From contig JAHQWW010000128.1 of NCBI GenBank assembly GCA_029856365.1, forward strand, positions 1 through 10,811: 10,811 bases of DNA, given 5' to 3'. Of this stretch, positions 2 through 10,758 are shown in pieces. The translations under genes and the position numbers were made by a program. Source of the stretch: Candidatus Hodarchaeota archaeon (GTDB taxonomy: Archaea; Asgardarchaeota; Heimdallarchaeia; Hodarchaeales; Hodarchaeaceae). How positions within the stretch are numbered: the stretch's first letter is position 1; each line of letters opens with the position of its first letter. The notes below the pieces were generated by a model, which was given only the letters and a program-made list of their open reading frames with translations, was not told the origin of the DNA and made no database searches.

Positions 2-859
2 TTCGTTAAATATTCGGACACGTGTTTCAGGAACAGGGATAGAGTCATTATCGAAACGTCGGATTGATTGATCAGGCATATATTGATACGCATCAGACCA
101 ATTCTCCATTTTTTCATCCCAAGCTCGCTGTTTAGCCACAAGATCCTCTTCTCCAAGGGGATTAACCATTTTACGTGGGTCCATTATCCCATTCAAAAGA
201 CTATTGACATTTTCTGCGAAATATTTGACTCCCAAGATTCTAAAATCTTCTGCGACTCTTTGGTACCCCAATCCAGGATCTTCTGCTAAGATTTCACCTA
301 TTTCCCAAAGGTAATAAAAATAAGATTGTTCTGCACCAAGAACAGGACTTCCTTCAATACGTACTTTTGTTTCATTGACTGGGACTAACGCTCGTAACTG
401 ATCTGTTGAACCAGAACCAAAGATATGGAATGATATGGGGTTGGTAACTGTTTTTGCGATCTCTTTCCATTTGATAACTTCTCCGCCTAGCAAAACCCCA
501 TCAAGTTTACCATTAATGAAGTATAATTTTATCCAGTATTTATTGTCAAGTATTGATAATTGAAGATCTTTCCACCTATTTACAGGAATCAGATGGATGT
601 TATGATAGATTATACCTGCAGAGGTAAAAACATTTAATGCTGTATTTATCAGTAGACTATGATTATTATCATAAATAACTGCTATTTTTCTTGGTAAATC
701 AAAACCAGGATATTTTTCATCAAAAGGAGGTGTCTCTTTGGTTCGATTGATTTCAGCTCTTCGTGCAGCAGCACTTGCAACACTTATAAGAATAATAAGT
801 ATTATGAGAGTTGAGAAAACAATATTCCTATAACGAATGATTTTCTTTGCATGAATCAT
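2..859 (-). CDS. Secreted or membrane-anchored hypothetical protein, 3' end beyond the window (>=286 aa), translationally coupled to the giant gene
   Basis: Manual translation from the ATG at 859-857 is open to the window edge: MIHAKKIIRYRNIVFSTLIILIILISVASAAARRAEINRTKETPPFDEKYPGFDLPRKIAVIYDNNHSLLINTALNVF...WIKLYFINGKLDGVLLGGEVIKWKEIAKTVTNPISFHIFGSGSTDQLRALVP...RVRIFNE. The ATG overlaps the upstream stop (ATGA) and has AAGGAGGT 7 nt upstream. It has a basic n-region, a hydrophobic h-region and an A-S-A cleavage-like site. It is absent from the ORF track, presumably because it has no stop inside the window. Confidence 0.9.
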   Translation of the reverse strand, partial: MIHAKKIIRYRNIVFSTLIILIILISVASAAARRAEINRTKETPPFDEKYPGFDLPRKIAVIYDNNHSLLINTALNVFTSAGIIYHNIHLIPVNRWKDLQLSILDNKYWIKLYFINGKLDGVLLGGEVIKWKEIAKTVTNPISFHIFGSGSTDQLRALVPVNETKVRIEGSPVLGAEQSYFYYLWEIGEILAEDPGLGYQRVAEDFRILGVKYFAENVNSLLNGIMDPRKMVNPLGEEDLVAKQRAWDEKMENWSDAYQYMPDQSIRRFDNDSIPVPETRVRIFNE

Positions 860-3800
860 GGTTGGAACCTCCTTCTATCAATGGCATTTTGTTTTTGTTT
901 CCTTCTAACCCAGAAAAATAAAAATGAAGCAAAAATGGTTAGGAAAATAGGAAACACAAGTTCCAGAACTTGCGTTTTACTGGCAACATTTGCAGAAGTA
1001 ATTTCTGAATCATTCTGAGATTGATCAGGTGGAGATTTATCTCTAAAATCAACACTTGCGGCTTGTCCATTCTGTAAGCCTAAAAATCTACCAGATGGAT
1101 CTGTAACTGCTATTGTGCCATCGATTAAAATTGCTACGAAAGCTTCTTTCATGGTGGAATCCACTTTCCAGTTTTTAACTGTTATTATTTCCTCAGGGAA
1201 TGAATGCGATTCTATGATAGCTCCTTCAGGTGTAAGGACGATGAGTGAGTTATGAACAACGAATGCTATTTCATTTTCATCACTATTATCGATGTTAGCA
1301 AAGTGATGGTCATAAGAATCATTGCAATAGTATTGCGATTCACTAACGAATGTTATTATACTTCCATCGTCTTTCCATACCTGTGAACCATTATTGCGGG
1401 TAGTTAGTAAAATATCATAATAGGAACCTTGATCAACTATATCCATAGCAACAATCTCCTTTTGATAAGTGATTGAATTAAATGAGACCGCTCCATTAGA
1501 AAGCCATTTATATCGAAGTAATTCTCCTCCATCAGAAACCAGATATATATTTGCTAGTTGATTTTTACTTTCAATTGATTTCACTAAAACCCATTTTGTA
1601 CCCATATCTGGTGCTGGGAAAGAGCCTCCAAGAATTGATGTTGACGGTAATTCAATCAAACTTGCTGTTCCAAGAAAATCTAAAGCAACAATATGAGTTT
1701 TAATTCCAATATTGGAAGTATCAAGACATTCACCTTTCAGATATGTGAAGTAGGTAGGACTTGTAAAAGTCCAGATGAATTTTTTAGTGATAGGATTGAA
1801 AAGTGAGAGTATTCCGCTATTGTTTACAATAGATTGTAATAATAAGACGTCAGAACTACCATCTAAGGATAACGAAGTTGCAATCGAACCATCAGTAGTA
1901 ACTTGAGCCCAAACTTTAGTGGTTGTTCCCTCAAGAATGAAGAGATCGCTTTTATCAGTTTTAAATGCTAAACCTAGCTTACCTGGTTCAATCTCTAAAC
2001 CACATGCACTTATGTTTGAAAATGCTAGTAATTGAATTCGCCAGATCTCACCTCGGTTAAAGCTTCTCAGAATAAGTGTCCCATTATTGAAAGCAACCAA
2101 AAGCTTTTCAGTCCCGTCATTAGTCACTATGACAGGTATCACGAAACTATCAATTGAAGTGAGATCAGTATATAGTATTTTTGTTTTGGTCTTTACAAAG
2201 CTCGTCTGTGGTGTGATGGTATTGTTAGCTTTTGTTAACATACCAGTAACCTTGAAAATTGGGCCAGTCCCATTAATACATGTAACAGCTATATAGGTTT
2301 GGTCATCATCTGCATTTGCTATATTTGCCGTCACCGATTGTGAGTCAAAGTCTGTCCAAAGGATGTCAGCTCCTGTTAATGATATACCAAATAATCCTGA
2401 ATTGAATGTGTAACCAAGTATAATTTTCGTATTACCGTAGGATTTAATTTCAAATTTAACCATGTTATCAAAGAAGTACCTCTGCCAAATAATATCAGCT
2501 GTAGACACATCAATGGCAAATATTGCGCTTGTGTAACCCTTTGACGGGAAAAGAGTGGTAGAAGATGTAAAATCATGTATTGGCAAGATAATATCTGTTA
2601 TAGAATTACCATCGACATCCTGTGCATAAATATCAAAGTCATCTAAATCCATTCCTTTACCAATAGGAATAGTTTGATTCAGCATTATATTCAATGTAGA
2701 GAGATCATAAACTTCTAAACGACTTTCATTTGTATAATTATCAAAAATAGCAATAGCCAAATCAAGTTGGAGGTTACCATCAAAATCACCAATGGCAGAT
2801 CGGGATCTTGTATCGAATTTTGTCAAATGACTTAAATTAAATGATTTTTGAATTGATCCATCCTTCCTCAAAATAGTAACATTTTTGTAGGTTAAAAAGT
2901 CACTTGAGCATACTGATATTCTTGTTGTTTTCCCAATACTACCCACTGTAAGATCAAAATAACCTTTATTTTGAGGATTATTATCTGGTGTCACATCCCA
3001 AATTTCTTCACCAGTTATTGGTTCAATGGCACGAATATCAATCATGGTCGCAACAATAAGGTCTGGTACCGTATCACCATCAACATCAGTAAAAGCATGG
3101 TTATTGGTAGTATTCAATGAGGCCTCAGGAATCCAATATTGTTCATTCCCATCAAGATCTACTCCTAATATCCCTTCGGATGTAATTCCCATAATAACTG
3201 AATCATCAATGAGATAGATCTTGCTTATCTTACTATGGATTGTATACCGCCATAATAACTCATCTTCTTCGATATCCCATGCTGTTATTCCATTATCGCC
3301 TCTTCCGTCAGCAATGATGAGATCTAATTCACCATCGCCATCAACATCAATTAAGAGGCTATCCGATGCGTTTATTGTAGAACTTGAAACAAATGTTACA
3401 TCACTATAGAGATATTCTTCAGTAATGGCATACATGTCATTTATTGGTTGTTCTAGATTGGAGACTTCAAAACTGAAAACATCACCTCCTTTTAAAGTGA
3501 AAATAAGTTCTGGCCAACCATTTCCATTAGAATCAAAAATTGCGACTGCTCCAATTTCGCGAGCTCTTGCCTCATCAGAAGCGAAGAATTGTGCATAAGT
3601 ACTGTTTAGGAGTTCGGGATGGAGTGAGATGAATGATGGTGGCTGGTATTGCCATTTCTGGAGATATGAAATACTTCCATCAATTTCCTGATTTATCTCA
3701 AGTAACGAAACACGATAATTATGTGAAATGAATAATTCGTTTCGTAAGTCATTATCTGTGTCACCAACAGCAATCGCTGTCACTTCATGTAAATCAGTGA

Positions 3801-6800
3801 ATTTGAACCAGTGACCTTGTTCTATCTTACCTATCCACAGTTGCGTGGCTAAGTTATAAGAACTATTGTATGAATTTTCTGTGTAAAATGGATCTGAAAC
3901 ATCTACCAAGAATCTTGAAACGAGTTGATAGAGGATTCCACCTGTACCATCATCAGTAACACGGGGTCTGTAGTTTTGGCGACTTATCACATTATATCCA
4001 CCTTCCGTTACCAAACCTGCTGTTGATTGAACAAGATCAGGATCATCGCTATTCAGAACATAAGAATCAGACCAAGTCGTTCCAGAATCACTAGAAAAGA
4101 TGGAAACAACTTCTGACTGACCACCAATAAGTCGTTCGCGTAGATATGTTCGTTCGTATAATACTGCAATTCTATTGGGGTAATTTTCCATTGTTGAAGC
4201 ACTAGGGAATTGTGCGCTTCCTACGCCACTAGTAATTGGAAAAACACCTTGATTCTGGTAAGTACTATTCAAGACTGTAAAGTACAACTTTTGTGCTCGA
4301 TAAAAAGTATCCCTTGGATATCCAGCGAAAATAATCCCAAGGCGGCTATTAATATTGATTAAATCAACTGAATGGATAAAGTAACCCTCTAATCCAAGAG
4401 AATCTGATTTATTAACTAATACTCCATTTTCAATAACCTGTAGCATCAAAATCCCTTGATAATCAGGGATCTTGGATTGTGAATAGCTAAGATAAACAAT
4501 TTGATCAGTCTTTGTAATTATTTCTAACGTTCCTAAACCTTGTACTTGGATATTAGGATCAACTACAGTTATATTTAGAATTAAACGCGTTTTTGTCAAA
4601 TAGTTCCCGTTTTTATCGAAATTTCGCGCAAGAATGCATTTTCCATCAACCATTCCATCACTAGTATTGTATTCATGCACCCACGATACAAAAATGGTTC
4701 CATTCTGTAACTGAGTAATTACAGGTTCATATTCTATTCCAAAATGTATTCCATCATCACTATTATAATTCCGTTCATAAGGTGTACCATTGTGGTTGAT
4801 TCCCCAATCATGTGACTCCCAATCGAGAAGTGAACCAGTATCTAAAGGTATATCAGCTGTTTGTAATACATTTGACTGGTTTTTTCGTTGTTTAGATGAA
4901 CGATCGGGATAAAGATCAACGGAATCAATTTTATCCTCATAGTCATATAATGTAACTGCATTCGGAGAATTATAATCAAATTCCAAGTTTATTCTAGTGA
5001 GATTAGGATTAAACCCATATCGATCATTAAATACTGATGAATTTCTCGCAATCACAAAGTAATCTCGAGCAGGAATTGTATCTGATAAAGTGATATTATT
5101 GTTTTCTGTTCGTATTGTTATACTTGCTAGCGATATATCGAATATATTTGGATTGTATAGCTCTATCCAATGGTAACTAATGTTTGAAGGATCAAAATTA
5201 TCCTTAAAAAATATCTCAGAGATTAACAGATCTTCTGGCGCATTGAAGAGCTGCTGCGTTATATTTTTTGCAGTTCCTAGAGACGTTGGATCGCTTGTCA
5301 CATTATAATAAAGACGTCCGTCACCATTACTAGGATCGGACATGTCAACCATCTTTTGATCCCCCGAATAATGATCATGGTCTTCTTCTTCGACACCATA
5401 GACAACAAAGTATTCATCTGAATCAAGACGTACTATATCATGAGCACGTGGACCTAATCCTATAGGGGAGTTGTATATTCCAAACGTTGGTGATAATTCA
5501 TTCTCGATTCCGTAATTTGGATCTGATGTAATTATTTCAATTCTAGTAAAATTCAAAATTTCTGATTTTTCTGCTTCCCAAATATCAATTCCATCCGCAT
5601 GTGCAATAATCAGTTCTAATTTACCATCGAAATCACTATCACTTATTGCAAACGCATTGATTCGTGTGCTTATTGATTGATTGAATTCGTAGAATTGATG
5701 GATATTGCCAAAGTCAGATTGAGAAGCTAAAAGAAATCCTGTTTCTGTACCAGTTAGATTTGCTCCTCCAATCCATAATTCAGTTTTATTATCTTGATTA
5801 AGATCTGCAAAAAGCATTGTACGAATGTCTAAATCAGGATGATAATTAGGATTTCCAGGTTGATTATAAAAACCAGAACTACCGCCAGTGGATTGAAAAC
5901 TTTCTACCCATCCAATTGCAGGATCATAACGGAGTAAGAATATTTGATTACTAACACCAAGAGCAATCATACTTCCACGCCCATCAAAATCTGGTGTGAT
6001 CGCCATAGTAGAAAACTGGTATACATCATTATCAGATATAAAACTATTAAAATCAGTTTCGAAAACAAACTCATACTCATCATTAAAGCCCGTTGCTTCG
6101 AAAAAATATATTTTAAAGCCAGCTGCGATAATAAATTCCTCATTTCCATTGTTATTATAATCTAATCCCGCAGCAGCAAGATTCCCATGATCAAAAATTG
6201 TCCTTTGAAAAGTACCTGGGACCCCAGGAAGATCCTGAAATGCATAGGGTGAAAATGTAGTAGTTTCCGTGTGATTAAGATTATGAGTCTTATAAGCCCG
6301 TTTATAAGTATTCTCAGTCAAATGTTCAAAGACGTACACGTTATTATCGTAATCGCTGACGATTATTTCAGCATAACTATCACCATCTAAACCATAAGAA
6401 GTAGTTAGAGTTAATGTCCAGTCTTTTAACTCATCTAAATTAGACCATGATTTAGCGATTGAATACCCAAAATTAATTGCATCAGGAGGGGATTGTTTCA
6501 GATTTACTTCTAATTTAACTAATTCTGGATTTGTACCAATAATATAAGCATTTTGTTGATTTGTTTCAGCAATAAGATTTCTTATATGGCCTTGTACACC
6601 ATTCCAGATCCATAGAGATTCAGCTGAGCTTTTATTGGAATTTGAGGAAACAATAACCCCGAACGTATAATTATTGAATCTTAAAGATCCATCAGTTGTT
6701 GGATTTTTCATCATATAGGCATTTCTTACCCATTGAGGTTCTCCGAAAGTCCCTTGATTTTCAAAGAAATCCATACCATAGCGAAAACCAGTCTGACCAG

Positions 6801-9800
6801 CTTCCCATTCACAGACATAATAACGAGTGGAGGCACCTGGTAAATCATTCCAAAGGCCATTAGTGTACATTTCTACATAATCTTCCCCAGAACCAGCATT
6901 ATTGGGCTCCCCTGGACTCCATTGAGCATCACCTGAAACATAAGGTTCATCCGTAACCCATTTCCAGACCCCTTCAGTTATTTCATCAGTTAAACCAATC
7001 CATATCCTATTGGATCTGGCCAAATTGCTTACAAATGTATTTTCTGCACTAGTAGTAACGGTGACTAAATGTCCACCGTATGCTTGACATGCTGCCTTGG
7101 CTTCAGTCCAAGTTTTTGTGTCATAAAATAATTTGTACTCATTGCCCAAATAGAAAACTCCTCCATGACTAGAGCTTTGGTATGAATAAGCTATGTCATA
7201 ATCTCCATCCTGATCGTAATCCCATGCGTTTGGCGAAAATATGGGATTTAGAGGAGCCCGATCATTGAATTCTTCAAAATAATCAGAATCAAACTTGAAT
7301 CTAGGATTGGAAGCGGTTCCAACATTCCATAAGATGGCTAGTTTTCCATTGGATATAATAATGTCTTCTAAGGTGTCGTTATTAACGTCTACTATTGTAC
7401 CTGAAGGATAAGTGGTTGCAATAGCAAGAAAATCGTACAAATGACCTTCTGTGTCGTTTAAAATCCCTGAATAATAATAATACTCATCATTGTTGGGCAT
7501 AGGCTGAGTATAATACCAAATTTGGGGATAAAGTTCTGGATCATATGTAATTGGTCTTCTAAAAGGACCTTCATACCAAGGGAATACAACAAGCTCATCC
7601 ATCTCGTTGTCGTAAAGGTTACCAAAAGCAGTTGTAAGAACTTTATCAGAGAGAATACTATAACCATTAATGAAATAAAATATTGATTCTGAAGGTACAG
7701 GAACATTATTCGGCAACTCGAAGCCCGTTTCATCACTATATACCTTAATATCATTACTAGAGGTGCTAGTAACAATTAATTCACCAGATCCAGGGTTGAT
7801 CAGCTCGCTGCAATCAGCAACACTGATATGATGAACATCTGAAAAACCAGTAAATTCCTTTGTTTTCTCTACTCCGTTCTTAATATATCTCCAGGACGGG
7901 ATATAGGTCGCTTTTGGTGTTCCTTGTATAGACCAGATAGTTTCTCCTAAATTGAAATAAGAATCAGTATAGGAATCCCATATCTGGTTAAAGGAGGGGT
8001 TTACTATTCCATAATCTGTTGCAGGAATTTCTGTGAGTTCAGCAAGTTTACTTGGAAACTTTTTATAATAAGAAATATTGTGTGGTTCATATTGGAATGC
8101 TAAAAGCCGACCATCAGTTCCTCCGAAGACTATCTTATTTTTGACATCAGATTCGTTATAGGAAAATGATAATGGGTCAATAGTTACCGATGTTGCAATG
8201 GTTAGGGGGCGGGCAACATAAGGAAAGACTATCGCGTTTACTCTTCTTTCTTTAAATTCAGTTGTATTATCCTGCAGTAAAGTTAATCGGATATATTGGG
8301 CTGACATCATTTTTTTCCAGGCAAAAAGGGGGTCAACATCAATAGATAATCCATTACCGTAAGTTAATGGAGAAATATCAGATGAGTCGATTTGATGCCA
8401 ATCAATGAGGTTGTTACTAAGAGAAATATTCCATTCATTTGGGTCAGGGGTTGGCGAACCCGTTGAGGAATCAAAAATGATGTATAGATCTGGATTGGAA
8501 TTTCCATTTGATGCCACCTCTTCGCTTTTTCCCAAGTTCCATGTACCTGTGGCGTTATTATGAGTACTGTTTGTGTAGAAAGTTGTATGTTTGTCGTCCA
8601 AAGAATCCCATTCACAGATATAGTAAATGGAAGATGTAGCAGGCAAATCATTCCAAGTGCCATCTGTACGCATATGTCCATAATGTTCAATTCCACCATA
8701 ATTATCAGGTTGATTTGTCCCCCAATTAGTGTAGTCAACACCTCTCACGCAGGACTCGCCTGTAATCCATTGATCCCAATTCCCTTCCTCTATTACATCT
8801 GATAAACCAATCCAAACATAATTAGACCCTGCCAAGTTATGAACGAAACTACTCTCTTCAACACTGGTAATGGTGACTAAGTGGCCACCTAAAGTCTCAC
8901 AAGCAGCTTTTGCTGCTGTCCACGATACTTTAGTAGTGAATCCTCTATATTCATGTCCATTGTACAGTACTCCTCCGCGGTTATTTTCCCATTCACAGAC
9001 ATAATAACGAAAATCATCAATATTATCGATATCATTCCATGCTCCATTCCAATCAGCCATCAGTTCAACAAAATCTTCAAGACCATGTGCAGGAGAAGGT
9101 ACGAGATGATTATAGATTTTGATGTCATCCGTGATCCACTTGAAGTTACCTTCTGATGCACCATAAGTCTCGGAATCCGTTAAACCAATATGAACTCTAG
9201 CATTACCACCAGTCAATCCAGAGTTTAAAACCAAGTCGGTAATGAACTCATTTTCTTCAGGGCTAGTAATAACGACCAGATGGCCACCCAGGGCCTCACA
9301 CGCAGCTTTTGCTGCTGTCCACAATACTTTAGAAGATTTAAATAACTTATATTCATTTCTATTGTAAATAATTCCATCATGTTGGGTAAGACTATGGGCA
9401 GGTTCACCAGTAACAGCAGAATTGGCTGTGGGTTCAAATGTGTTTTGAGTATCCGCATCCCATGGTTCAGGATATTTACTCCCATCTTCATCTTGGTAAT
9501 ATACTTGCCAGTTCATAGATTCGCTACGAACCATCCAATCAGCGAAATTTTCAAAGGGATAAGCTCCCACCATTTGCCAGCCTTCAAAATTTTGGATCAG
9601 CTGTTCCAAGTAAAAACCCCGCTCATCTGTATAGTGTAGTACCCATGCGCCTTGTCCCCAAGCAAGAATAACTGCTTCCATAGCTATGTCACCATCATCT
9701 AATTCTCCTGTGGCGATTTGACCTATTGGGTTCCAAATTGGCTGATAGAGACCACTGTTATTCCAGACTAGTCGATAATCGTTGTCATTGGGAAAAGGAA

Positions 9801-10758: not shown

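Follow-up and report, generated by a model that had tools for sequence, protein, structure and literature searches.

The window analysed here, a 10,811-nucleotide stretch from a Candidatus Hodarchaeota archaeon, is an entire contig (C159) and carries two long open reading frames, with gene B1 followed by gene A1 and both on the minus strand. According to the ORF list and its translation, the larger frame encodes a B1 protein of 3300 amino acids, and the second frame (286 amino acids) runs open into the contig end and is the start of gene A1, the downstream gene being cut by the end of the assembly. Full-length A1 (P0005) has 2206 amino acids and is 100% identical to the window frame over residues 1-286; its C-terminal 770 residues were found on contig C102 (C102:1-2310). 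An earlier note on this DNA had described a second exported protein behind the giant one. What the window holds is only the first 286 residues of a protein that is itself a 2206-residue giant. The pair belongs to a seven-gene block that in the source genome is split over three contigs (C149, C159 and C102). The features of the window are as follows.

856..10758, minus strand: gene B1, predicted type I membrane protein with lectin domains set into an FG-GAP multi-propeller scaffold (ORF, Pfam)
10669..10752, minus strand: N-terminal signal-like segment of B1, MKMSSQSAKIRRK plus a hydrophobic run (read from the sequence)
9601..10431, minus strand: N-terminal FG-GAP/ITFG2-type beta-propeller, residues ~110-386 (Pfam FG-GAP_3, FG-GAP, Itfg2 and Beta-prop_BBS7)
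8992..9327, minus strand: C-type lectin domain CTLD1, WND kept, without EPN or QPD (PF00059, 46 bits; motif scan)
8611..8931, minus strand: CTLD2, QPD at residue 683 and WND at residue 702, galactose-type signature (PF00059, 70 bits)
7141..8589, minus strand: conserved B scaffold block, residues 724-1206 (alignment)
6808..7119, minus strand: CTLD3, EPN at residue 1284 and WND at residue 1303, mannose/GlcNAc-type signature (PF00059, 88 bits)
5428..6783, minus strand: conserved B scaffold block, residues 1326-1777, with FG-GAP-type calcium loops (alignment, motif scan)
4915..5241, minus strand: candidate lamin-tail (LTD) Ig-like domain (Pfam PF00932)
3769..4911, minus strand: BNR/sialidase-like propeller candidate, residues 1950-2330 (Asp-box, ESM Atlas feature search)
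1009..3768, minus strand: C-terminal propeller region, residues ~2331-3250, PQQ_2/BBS2-like (weak Pfam PQQ_2 and BBS2_Mid matches)
859..972, minus strand: C-terminal end of B1, with a predicted transmembrane helix (904-972) and a short basic tail (hydropathy)
856..874, minus strand: coupling junction, AAGGAGG at 868-874, 8-nt spacer, ATGA overlap at 856-859 (sequence)
2..859, minus strand: gene A1, first 286 residues, cut by the contig end (ORF)
164..697, minus strand: family-defining alpha/beta N-terminal domain of A, residues ~55-232 (AlphaFold2, clusters)

The ORF, Pfam and hydropathy analyses agree on a 3300-residue protein with a signal-like N-terminus, propellers, lectin domains and a C-terminal transmembrane segment, just as the earlier note had it. 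The signal-like segment of B1 displays a basic n-region and a hydrophobic core, predicted from hydropathy and charge pattern; the N-terminal signal peptides of both proteins were called by eye from that pattern. At the opposite end, the single predicted transmembrane helix (residues 3263-3285, hydropathy 2.35) is followed by RRKQKQNAIDRRRFQP (the RRKQKQ tail), and a transmembrane helix with a short basic tail terminates all B homologues checked. B1 holds 48 N-x-S/T sequons, an enrichment over the expected 36 +/- 5. Matches above the curated Pfam cut-offs comprise Lectin_C (three stretches, 179 bits), FG-GAP_3 (46 bits), FG-GAP (29 bits), Beta-prop_BBS7 and Itfg2. Public homologues of B1 bear automatic GenBank names only, such as 'lectin-like protein [Ca. 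Hodarchaeales archaeon]'.

The N-terminal propeller is the best conserved part of B, with 40-47% identity phylum-wide. AlphaFold2 modelled it with pLDDT values of 80-97 and roughly 5-6 confident blades, and a Foldseek search with this propeller returned beta-propellers of many kinds, such as Sec13/Seh1 and KICSTOR chain B, with integrin alpha5 no higher than rank 50. By these matches the propeller is of the broad FG-GAP/ITFG2 type and not specifically integrin-like. B1 aligns collinearly with canonical B proteins of other Asgard archaea, and also with the B part of naturally occurring A-B fusions. Residues 724-1206 align with the canonical B of genome G024 (residues 448-910) and with the fusion of genome G346 (residues 2637-3103), and residues 1326-1777 share 29-33% identity with canonical B, with B2 and with the fusion. 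The motif scan detected seven DxDxDG-type loops and one Asp-box across B1, with DxNxNG/DxDxDG loops at residues 1533 and 1707 and the Asp-box, SSDSGTTW, at residue 2222. The lamin-tail match in B1 (29.2 bits) lies below the cut-off of 34.3, and the same domain exceeds the cut-off in homologues, among them that of G009 (41 bits). For residues 1950-2330 an ESM Atlas feature search retrieved BNR_2 clusters at scores of 0.92-0.93, which serve as a lead only, and Pfam gave no BNR match in B1. The C-terminal propeller region retains 59-65% identity to same-genus homologues and 28-40% in family f5.

The three PF00059 stretches of B1 all lie well above the cut-off of 22.6 bits, and comparison with solved chains gave E-values down to 1e-33. 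The best solved relatives of CTLD2 are MRC2, PLA2R, CLEC10A and ASGR1, and those of CTLD3 are DEC-205, langerin, SP-D, mincle and DC-SIGN. Over 105 nt, the DNA of CTLD1 and that of the CTLD2 region share 74% identity, which points to tandem duplication. Cysteines stand at residues 487 and 588 in CTLD1, 620, 670 and 715 in CTLD2, and 1224 and 1316 in CTLD3, so that the domains keep the outer alpha1-beta5 pair only; the 'EDC...C' pair is replaced, for example by EDYVEM. Since this second canonical disulfide is absent, the sugar-binding loops of B1 may be less stable than those of animal carbohydrate-recognition domains. In the collinear alignment with lectin-free B proteins, all three lectin domains fall exactly in the gaps between the aligned blocks, and they are by this alignment insertions at domain borders of the B scaffold. 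A word-indexed search that found eight short relatives placed metagenome proteins closest to the CTLDs (50-57% identity) and included an oyster perlucin-like protein at 37% identity.

The distribution of the lectin domains is narrow. Across the 85 Asgard genera sampled they are confined to one genus, apart from two unrelated proteins of family f20, and among B proteins they occur in the source genus only. Sugar-binding cassettes are swapped within the B family: where B1 has CTLDs, further B1-like proteins have PA14/GLEYA or ConA-like modules, the ConA-like module of one homologue being of the GH43_C2 type. By this pattern the C-type lectin domains of Asgard B proteins are a patchy, late addition. 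Two of the three CTLDs keep their calcium and sugar motifs, but the likeness to animal adhesion receptors drawn in the earlier note misleads, the modules being latecomers restricted among B proteins to a single genus. C-type-lectin folds are known targets of diversity-generating retroelements. Such targeting was also considered for B1, and neither a near-identical copy resembling a template repeat nor a reverse transcriptase occurs in the 10.8-kb contig; DNA repeats in the window are limited to the three diverged stretches that code for the CTLDs, 63-74% identical to one another, plus a single pair of propeller loops.

The partner protein A1 is built differently. Its alpha/beta N-terminal domain is followed by a hydrophobic middle of about 980 residues rich in Gly, Ala, Leu and Ile, by about 20 thrombospondin-type-3 (TSP3) calcium repeats, with 20 calcium motifs at residues 1253-2010, and by a C-terminal predicted transmembrane helix with a short basic tail like that of B1. 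Full-length partners (P0005 and the A1 of G009) match TSP3_bac only in Pfam. AlphaFold2 predicted the N-terminal domain, or head, with a mean pLDDT of 87 and a core of 94-98. The head is rare and almost exclusive to this family: a search of 1.84 billion proteins yielded no more than 68 cluster representatives, and the domain is N-terminal each time. Its best Foldseek matches were caspase-6 and SAVED-CHAT at E-values of about 2e-3 and TM-scores of 0.2-0.33, and VIA-align placed SAVED-CHAT (Z 10.2) level with PBP/LacI half-domains (Z 9-9.9). Such matches are to three-layer alpha/beta folds of a generic kind. Residues A74, Y113, G121, W131, H145, G150 and W185 are nearly invariant in 31 sequences. 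An active caspase/CHAT (clan CD) peptidase was considered for the head and rejected, as no cysteine is conserved in the 31 sequences and the fold likeness is not distinctive.

The two genes meet in a compact junction. The A1 start codon (ATG, 859-857) overlaps the B1 stop codon (TGA, 858-856) and is preceded, 8 nt upstream, by AAGGAGG, so the ATGA overlap and near-perfect Shine-Dalgarno sequence of the earlier note were both recovered. Five of the six species compared have the ATGA overlap, and AAGGAGG is invariant in all six amid variable flanking bases. In G009 and G011 the ORF coordinates likewise give a 4-nt overlap, and start/stop overlaps of this length exist in both gene orders, A-B and B-A. 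Several Thorarchaeota-type genomes encode A and B as single frames of 4,348-4,901 amino acids. These fusions retain the transmembrane helix of A, a Lys-rich linker and the signal anchor of B, and for that reason look like read-through of neighbouring genes, not like a fusion of interacting domains; they prove only that 1:1 co-expression is tolerated.

Adjacency of A and B had been put forward in the earlier note as a check on the pair, and it proved strict. The two genes are directly adjacent, co-oriented and in the same order in 10/10 relatives with strong matches to both, and in dozens of further Asgard genomes among the 399 sampled they are adjacent in every inspected case with both on one contig. 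In the common type B begins right after an A gene of approximately 2,100-2,250 amino acids; in the window type A begins at the end of B, and the B-A order is the reverse of the common A-B order. In many genera A and B stay side by side at identities of 25-45%, even as the genes around them change. These neighbours, a PPC-domain protein upstream, a right-handed beta-helix/NosD-like membrane protein downstream and a TPR protein, vary between lineages. A description as a two-gene system proved too narrow, since the pair belongs to the seven-gene block, which holds a second, diverged A/B pair (A2-B2 besides B1-A1). The pair has been duplicated as a unit, and the B1-A1 of the window is the diverged second unit, set apart by its inverted order and by the three CTLDs and an LTD/BNR-like segment placed into the B scaffold. 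Of the 399 genomes, 108 gave a match to the A head and 81 to the B N-propeller. No A head was detected in 291 of them (~73%), including 8 of the 22 genomes of the source genus and nearly all of family f20, and a pair absent from most sampled genomes cannot be a universal Asgard contact machine. Judged by its sequence, the window copy is one unit of a conserved, uncharacterised, Asgard-specific pair encoding probable giant surface proteins.

As the earlier note had supposed, the pair does not match a described system in the literature searched, which covered Asgard FG-GAP, C-type lectin, integrin and thrombospondin proteins, and the GenBank names of its members are automatic. The supplementary files of the Hodarchaeales culture preprint likewise mention no lectin, FG-GAP, lamin-tail or VCBS protein. 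The 'badge' protein of Nerearchaeum, a single large beta-sheet protein, is set apart from A and B by its description (10.1101/2025.07.22.663070).

Several better known surface systems nevertheless resemble the pair in part. Integrin alpha and beta each join a large ectodomain to a short tail in a type I membrane protein, a plan that is predicted for A and B as well. Integrin alpha carries an FG-GAP-type beta-propeller with DxDxDG calcium loops, as B1 does, and its alpha-I domain, a ligand module in or near the propeller region, may be an analogue of the lectin insertions of B1. However, integrin beta is composed of beta-I/vWA (MIDAS), PSI, hybrid and EGF domains, and Pfam finds none of these in A; integrin alpha has thigh and calf legs and a GFFKR motif, and B1 lacks both (Pfam; its tail reads WVRRKQKQNAIDRRRFQP). 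B1 is also about three times larger than integrin alpha and contains several propellers. Homology of the A/B system with integrins was accordingly rejected, because A has none of the domains of a beta subunit and the propeller resembles propellers at large, leaving analogy only. The integrin-alpha-like propeller of the earlier note falls with it, being of the generic FG-GAP/ITFG2 type and paired with a partner devoid of integrin-beta features.

The CTLDs of B1 share Pfam Lectin_C and the EPN/WND and QPD/WND signatures with animal multi-CTLD receptors (MRC1/MRC2, DEC-205, PLA2R) and with the single recognition domains of langerin, DC-SIGN, ASGR1 and CLEC10A. Unlike those of the animal receptors, they are embedded in an archaeal propeller scaffold and possess the outer cysteine pair only. 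Bacterial TSP3-repeat and giant calcium-dependent adhesins (Myxococcus CglD-type; RTX/BAP-type) are likewise very large, repeat-rich and calcium-binding, with terminal ligand modules. The A/B pair differs from these adhesins in its C-terminal transmembrane anchor in an archaeal membrane, with no T1SS or outer membrane, and in having an obligate second giant.

Taken together, we lean, if only slightly, towards A1 and B1 forming a membrane-anchored surface pair that serves in calcium-dependent contact or capture and whose lectin cassettes choose the glycans. From the signal-like starts and terminal helices we infer that both proteins are exported and exposed as giant, singly membrane-anchored and probably N-glycosylated surface proteins. 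B1 would present a chain of FG-GAP/ITFG2-type and other beta-propellers into which genus-specific CTLD cassettes (QPD, EPN and degenerate) are inserted; A1 would contribute its family-specific alpha/beta head, the hydrophobic middle, a stalk made up of its roughly 20 TSP3 calcium repeats, and an anchor of its own. Both genes are probably translated from one message by termination-reinitiation at AAGGAGG-N8-ATGA, and such an arrangement should yield matched amounts of the two proteins at the same membrane site. A and B may then associate side by side on the outer membrane face, where the lectin cassettes of B would set which glycans are bound, whether on partner-cell envelopes, exopolymers or particles.

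The same gene arrangement could arise if A and B were co-regulated but independent surface proteins, kept adjacent by shared regulation and secretion timing with no physical complex between them. The block does contain other surface-type genes that vary by lineage (PPC-domain, beta-helix/NosD-like and TPR), the fusions keep both membrane segments and the linker and need no domain-domain contact, and the gene order of the window type is inverted relative to the common one. Yet it is exactly A and B that remain together in many genera, although their sequences have diverged to 25-45% identity. They have also been duplicated jointly, one block holding both A2-B2 and B1-A1, and the start/stop overlaps are kept in both orders. 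Pairing this strict is typical of subunits and counts against independent action, which we consider unlikely while still granting it some weight. If, on the other hand, the two proteins were structural components of an irregular Asgard coat serving as a protective or spacing layer, their large size, membrane anchors and abundant sequons would be accounted for, and the surface of cultured Asgard archaea does bear globular densities, of unknown composition, in a layer that is not crystalline (10.1101/2025.07.22.663070; 10.1101/2025.11.06.686947). A core envelope component should be near-universal, however, and most of the genomes searched yielded no such pair, even many of the same genus that are >90% complete. 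Lectin cassettes that differ among close relatives also fit recognition better than structure, and the S-layer protein proposed for a Hodarchaeales isolate is another one, a homotetramer (10.1101/2025.02.26.640444). The patchy distribution and this other published candidate weaken an archaeal S-layer reading in particular, and we regard a coat function as very unlikely.

Nutrition offers a further explanation, in which the block would be an apparatus for polysaccharide capture and degradation, with B as the platform for binding or hydrolysis of the lectin/BNR type and with the beta-helix and PPC neighbours as enzymes. The BNR/sialidase-like lead with its Asp-box, the position of the NosD-type protein downstream and the PPC-domain protein upstream, and the GH43_C2 module of one homologue are all compatible with such a role. 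Against it, Pfam and NCBIfam identify no glycoside-hydrolase or lyase catalytic family in B or in the A head, the Asp-box is a single one and goes without a Pfam BNR match, and the conserved core (A head, TSP3 stalk and B N-propeller) carries no enzyme signature. Cultured Hodarchaeales strains are, moreover, reported to be peptide-dependent syntrophs (10.1101/2025.02.26.640444), and we hold the nutritional explanation to be the most remote of those considered.

Returning to the calcium-dependent contact or capture device, a more ambitious version would make A/B a heteromeric Asgard adhesion receptor, a functional analogue of the integrin type assembled from different parts, that mediates surface adhesion and partner contact and whose exchangeable cassettes (C-type lectin, PA14/GLEYA or ConA-like) choose the target glycans. 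We consider this version quite unlikely as it stands. If true, it would make accessible at the molecular level how archaea in syntrophic partnerships, as invoked for eukaryogenesis, pick and hold their partners.

In culture, Asgard cells, a Hodarchaeales strain among them, adhere to and crawl on surfaces, their adhesins not yet identified (PMC13716822), and they touch their partners via a protein-decorated membrane of unknown components (PMC13716822; 10.1101/2025.07.22.663070). The lectin domains of B1, a patchy and late insertion, caution that 'animal-type' domains in Asgard genomes should not be read as ancestral. The A/B pair is lineage-specific, strictly co-inherited, predicted to be surface-anchored and equipped with species-variable sugar-recognition modules, which makes it one of the few concrete candidates for Asgard cell contacts, and one that can be tested directly in the available Hodarchaeales and Lokiarchaeia cultures. 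Asgard archaea being the closest relatives of eukaryotes, the pair represents a candidate cell-contact device in that lineage.

The window is one entire contig (C159, 10,811 bases) and belongs to a MAG of 4.24 Mb that is 83.6% complete; near-identical proteins bear public names that assign it to Hodarchaeales/Kariarchaeaceae (Heimdallarchaeia, Asgard). It carries two open reading frames:

856-10758, minus strand: B1, 3300 aa, occupying nearly the whole contig
2-859, minus strand: N-terminus of A1, 286 aa; the contig ends inside the gene

The B1 stop overlaps the A1 start codon as ATGA, with AAGGAGG located 8 nt upstream. Among six species of the genus the AAGGAGG junction motif is invariant while adjacent bases vary, and the ATGA overlap is retained in five of the six. 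Since both frames, the ATGA and the AAGGAGG were found, with the junction motif conserved across the genus, the earlier note was accurate in describing a giant gene followed by a second frame with an ATGA overlap and a near-perfect SD. In the alignment, the junction of one genome (G012) reads ATGC, and its B1-orthologue match (G012:C248:14444-17932, minus strand) contains an in-frame TAA; the gene may be a pseudogene, the sequence may contain an error, or our coordinates may have been set wrongly.

The second gene had been taken for that of another exported protein. Its signal-like N-terminus stands, but the 286 residues are a fragment of a 2206-aa giant with its own TM helix. In every homologue of this fragment, the match formed the N-terminus of an open frame of approximately 2,050-2,300 aa. 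One of them from another assembly (P0005, 2206 aa) is identical to A1 over the entire 286 aa, and contig C102 of the window genome opens with the coding sequence for its last 770 aa. Full-length A1 comprises:

N-terminal: signal-like helix
following this helix: alpha/beta head
middle, about 980 aa: hydrophobic region with abundant Gly, Ala, Leu and Ile
aa 1253-2010: 20 TSP3-type calcium motifs, with Asp making up 19% of residues
C-terminal: TM helix, then an RRRR tail

AlphaFold2 gave a high-confidence fold for the A head (pLDDT 87) that resembles many three-layer alpha/beta domains, SAVED-CHAT (Z 10.2) being tied with periplasmic-binding-protein halves (Z 9-9.9). No conserved cysteine was found in an alignment of 31 head sequences, which rules out an active caspase-type protease. 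Such heads are rare: among 1.84 billion proteins, only 68 cluster representatives matched.

In all ten relatives with strong matches to both, three of which belong to another family (28-40% identity), the A1 head directly adjoins the last third of B1 in the same order. Across 399 sampled genomes of the phylum, 108 (27%; 42 of 85 genera) contained the A head and 81 (20%; 36 of 85 genera) the B N-terminal propeller. Coordinates were compared by hand in dozens of cases (e.g. G024, G028, G134, G137, G313, G385), and wherever both matches shared a contig the B propeller lay on the strand of A and started about 6.5-7 kb downstream of where A starts, indicating that B begins immediately after A; in G024 the two overlap by 4 nt. 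The reverse order of the window, B1 then A1, was seen in the window genus and family f5. The pair is not universal in Asgard: it is nearly absent from f20, the largest sampled family (A head in 2 and B in 0 of 135 genomes), and no A head was found in 8 of 22 genomes of the window genus.

Several genomes carry A and B as single frames of 4,700-4,900 aa, and P0023 of the representative library is another, at 4,348 aa. Natural A-B single frames of Thorarchaeota-type genomes, 4,348-4,887 aa in length, include L026 (G346:C38, 1860-16370, minus strand), P0023, P0107 and P0108. The G346 fusion, the one examined, keeps the A TM helix, a Lys-rich linker of about 70 aa and the B signal anchor; its predicted product would cross the membrane three times and expose both ectodomains on the outside. 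It looks like stop-codon loss between neighbouring genes rather than a domain fusion.

The pair lies in a larger block, complete in the closed genome G009 (all minus strand):

1: A2, 2205 aa
2: B2, 3159 aa
3: PPC-domain protein, 937 aa
4: B1 with CTLDs, 3162 aa
5: A1, 2224 aa
6: beta-helix/NosD-like protein, 846 aa, with a TPR match close to the C-terminus
7: TPR protein, 911 aa

G011 has an identical layout from the PPC-domain gene through the TPR gene. In the window genome the block was split by assembly over three contigs:

C149: B2 and the PPC protein
C159: B1 and the A1 start
C102: the A1 end and two TPR-bearing genes

Directly after A1 on C102 (2320-7648, plus strand) lie an 858-aa protein and a 927-aa all-TPR protein; the former has a signal-like N-terminus, and homology points to a right-handed beta-helix/NosD-like region and a TPR match close to the C-terminus. 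The same two kinds of gene come after A1 in G009 and G011, and might connect the surface proteins with the cytoplasm. The B2 frame on C149 (2-8869, plus strand) is at least 2956 aa long and terminates in YGQEEYLIEQK, with no hydrophobic helix at its C-terminus; its G009 orthologue has a C-terminal TM helix followed by KKRRFNQ. The lack of an anchor may be genuine, giving a shed form, or may stem from a frameshift or from faulty assembly.

Pfam searches of B1 returned FG-GAP, FG-GAP_3, Itfg2 and BBS7-type propeller matches close to the N-terminus, three Lectin_C domains (179 bits in total), weak PQQ/BBS2-type propeller matches toward the C-terminus and a lamin-tail (LTD) match at 29.2 bits, below the 34.3 cut-off but above it in homologues. 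The protein contains one Asp-box and seven DxDxDG-type calcium loops, and its N-glycosylation sequons are more numerous than expected (48 versus 36 +/- 5). A single hydrophobic helix (aa 3263-3285) precedes a basic tail. AlphaFold2 modelling of aa 30-470 with an alignment of 30 orthologues confidently shows a beta-propeller at aa ~110-386. Language-model features liken aa 1950-2330, which include the Asp-box, to a BNR/sialidase-type propeller, an assignment we regard only as a lead. Two 44-nt direct repeats (3050-3093 and 3311-3354, 70% identity) fall by position at about aa 2470-2570, in the C-terminal propeller region near a DVDGDG calcium loop at aa 2471, and look like ordinary internal repeat structure of that region.

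Animal CTLDs filled the best 60 of 210 solved-structure matches of B1. CTLD2 contains QPD...WND and matched MRC2, CLEC10A and ASGR1; CTLD3 contains EPN...WND and matched DEC-205, langerin, SP-D, mincle and DC-SIGN. In CTLD1 the EPN/QPD motif has been lost, and of the two canonical disulfides each domain retains just one. Ca2+-dependent sugar binding by the B1 CTLDs is plausible. BLASTP against lectin-free B proteins gave four collinear conserved blocks (aa 3-414, 724-1206, 1326-1777 and 2320-2520) whose gaps hold CTLD1-2 and CTLD3 exactly; the CTLDs have thus been inserted where domains meet. Of the 399 genomes, 12 contain Lectin_C, ten in the window genus and two in f20, the latter in unrelated proteins. 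The genus-limited spread, the one to three copies per orthologue within the genus, the likeness of CTLD1 to CTLD2 (74% DNA identity over 105 nt) and the PA14/GLEYA or ConA-like modules replacing CTLDs in related proteins point to the lectin modules being recent, exchangeable additions on an older scaffold. Of two B1-like proteins from other Hodarchaeales-type assemblies, P0100 combines PA14/GLEYA with three lamin-tail domains close to the C-terminus, and P0099 has a ConA-like GH43_C2 module at the N-terminus. The top-scoring CTLD of the window genome (89 bits) lies in a stand-alone 237-aa frame (C3:5933-6235, plus strand), and sister species also have CTLDs in proteins of about 1,500 aa (G007:C14, G011:C16, G020:C76, G013:C179, G014:C453). 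Within the window genus, CTLDs have spread into several gene families.

The results support A and B as a functionally linked, co-translated pair of predicted surface-anchored giants: they co-occur and are syntenic, as the earlier note's proposal of a two-gene surface system had implied. We infer that they would form a complex able to bind partner cells, glycans or matrix. That A and B are independent, co-regulated adhesins is the likeliest of three alternatives, and itself unlikely. An envelope coat component comes second and is improbable, and a glycan-harvesting apparatus encoded by the block has the slimmest chance; no characterised S-layer or hydrolase operon fits the pair. An integrin-type system was rejected by membership, A being without any beta-subunit domain and B without the alpha-subunit legs and motif. 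The B1 propeller is of the broad FG-GAP/ITFG2 kind; Foldseek returned general propellers (Sec13/Seh1, a KICSTOR subunit), with integrin alpha5 only at rank 50.

A search among about 8.4 million papers and preprints gave no description of the pair, and none of Asgard proteins with FG-GAP, C-type-lectin or TSP3 domains; expression or proteome evidence for the pair was likewise looked for in the literature and not found. GenBank names of the homologues are automatic. Asgard culture papers state that surface proteins and adhesins are not yet identified (PMC13716822; 10.1101/2025.07.22.663070; 10.1101/2025.11.06.686947). The detail gained from the window comprises the QPD/EPN assignment, the points at which the lectins are inserted, the swapping of cassettes, the conservation of the junction motif and the read-through character of the fusions.
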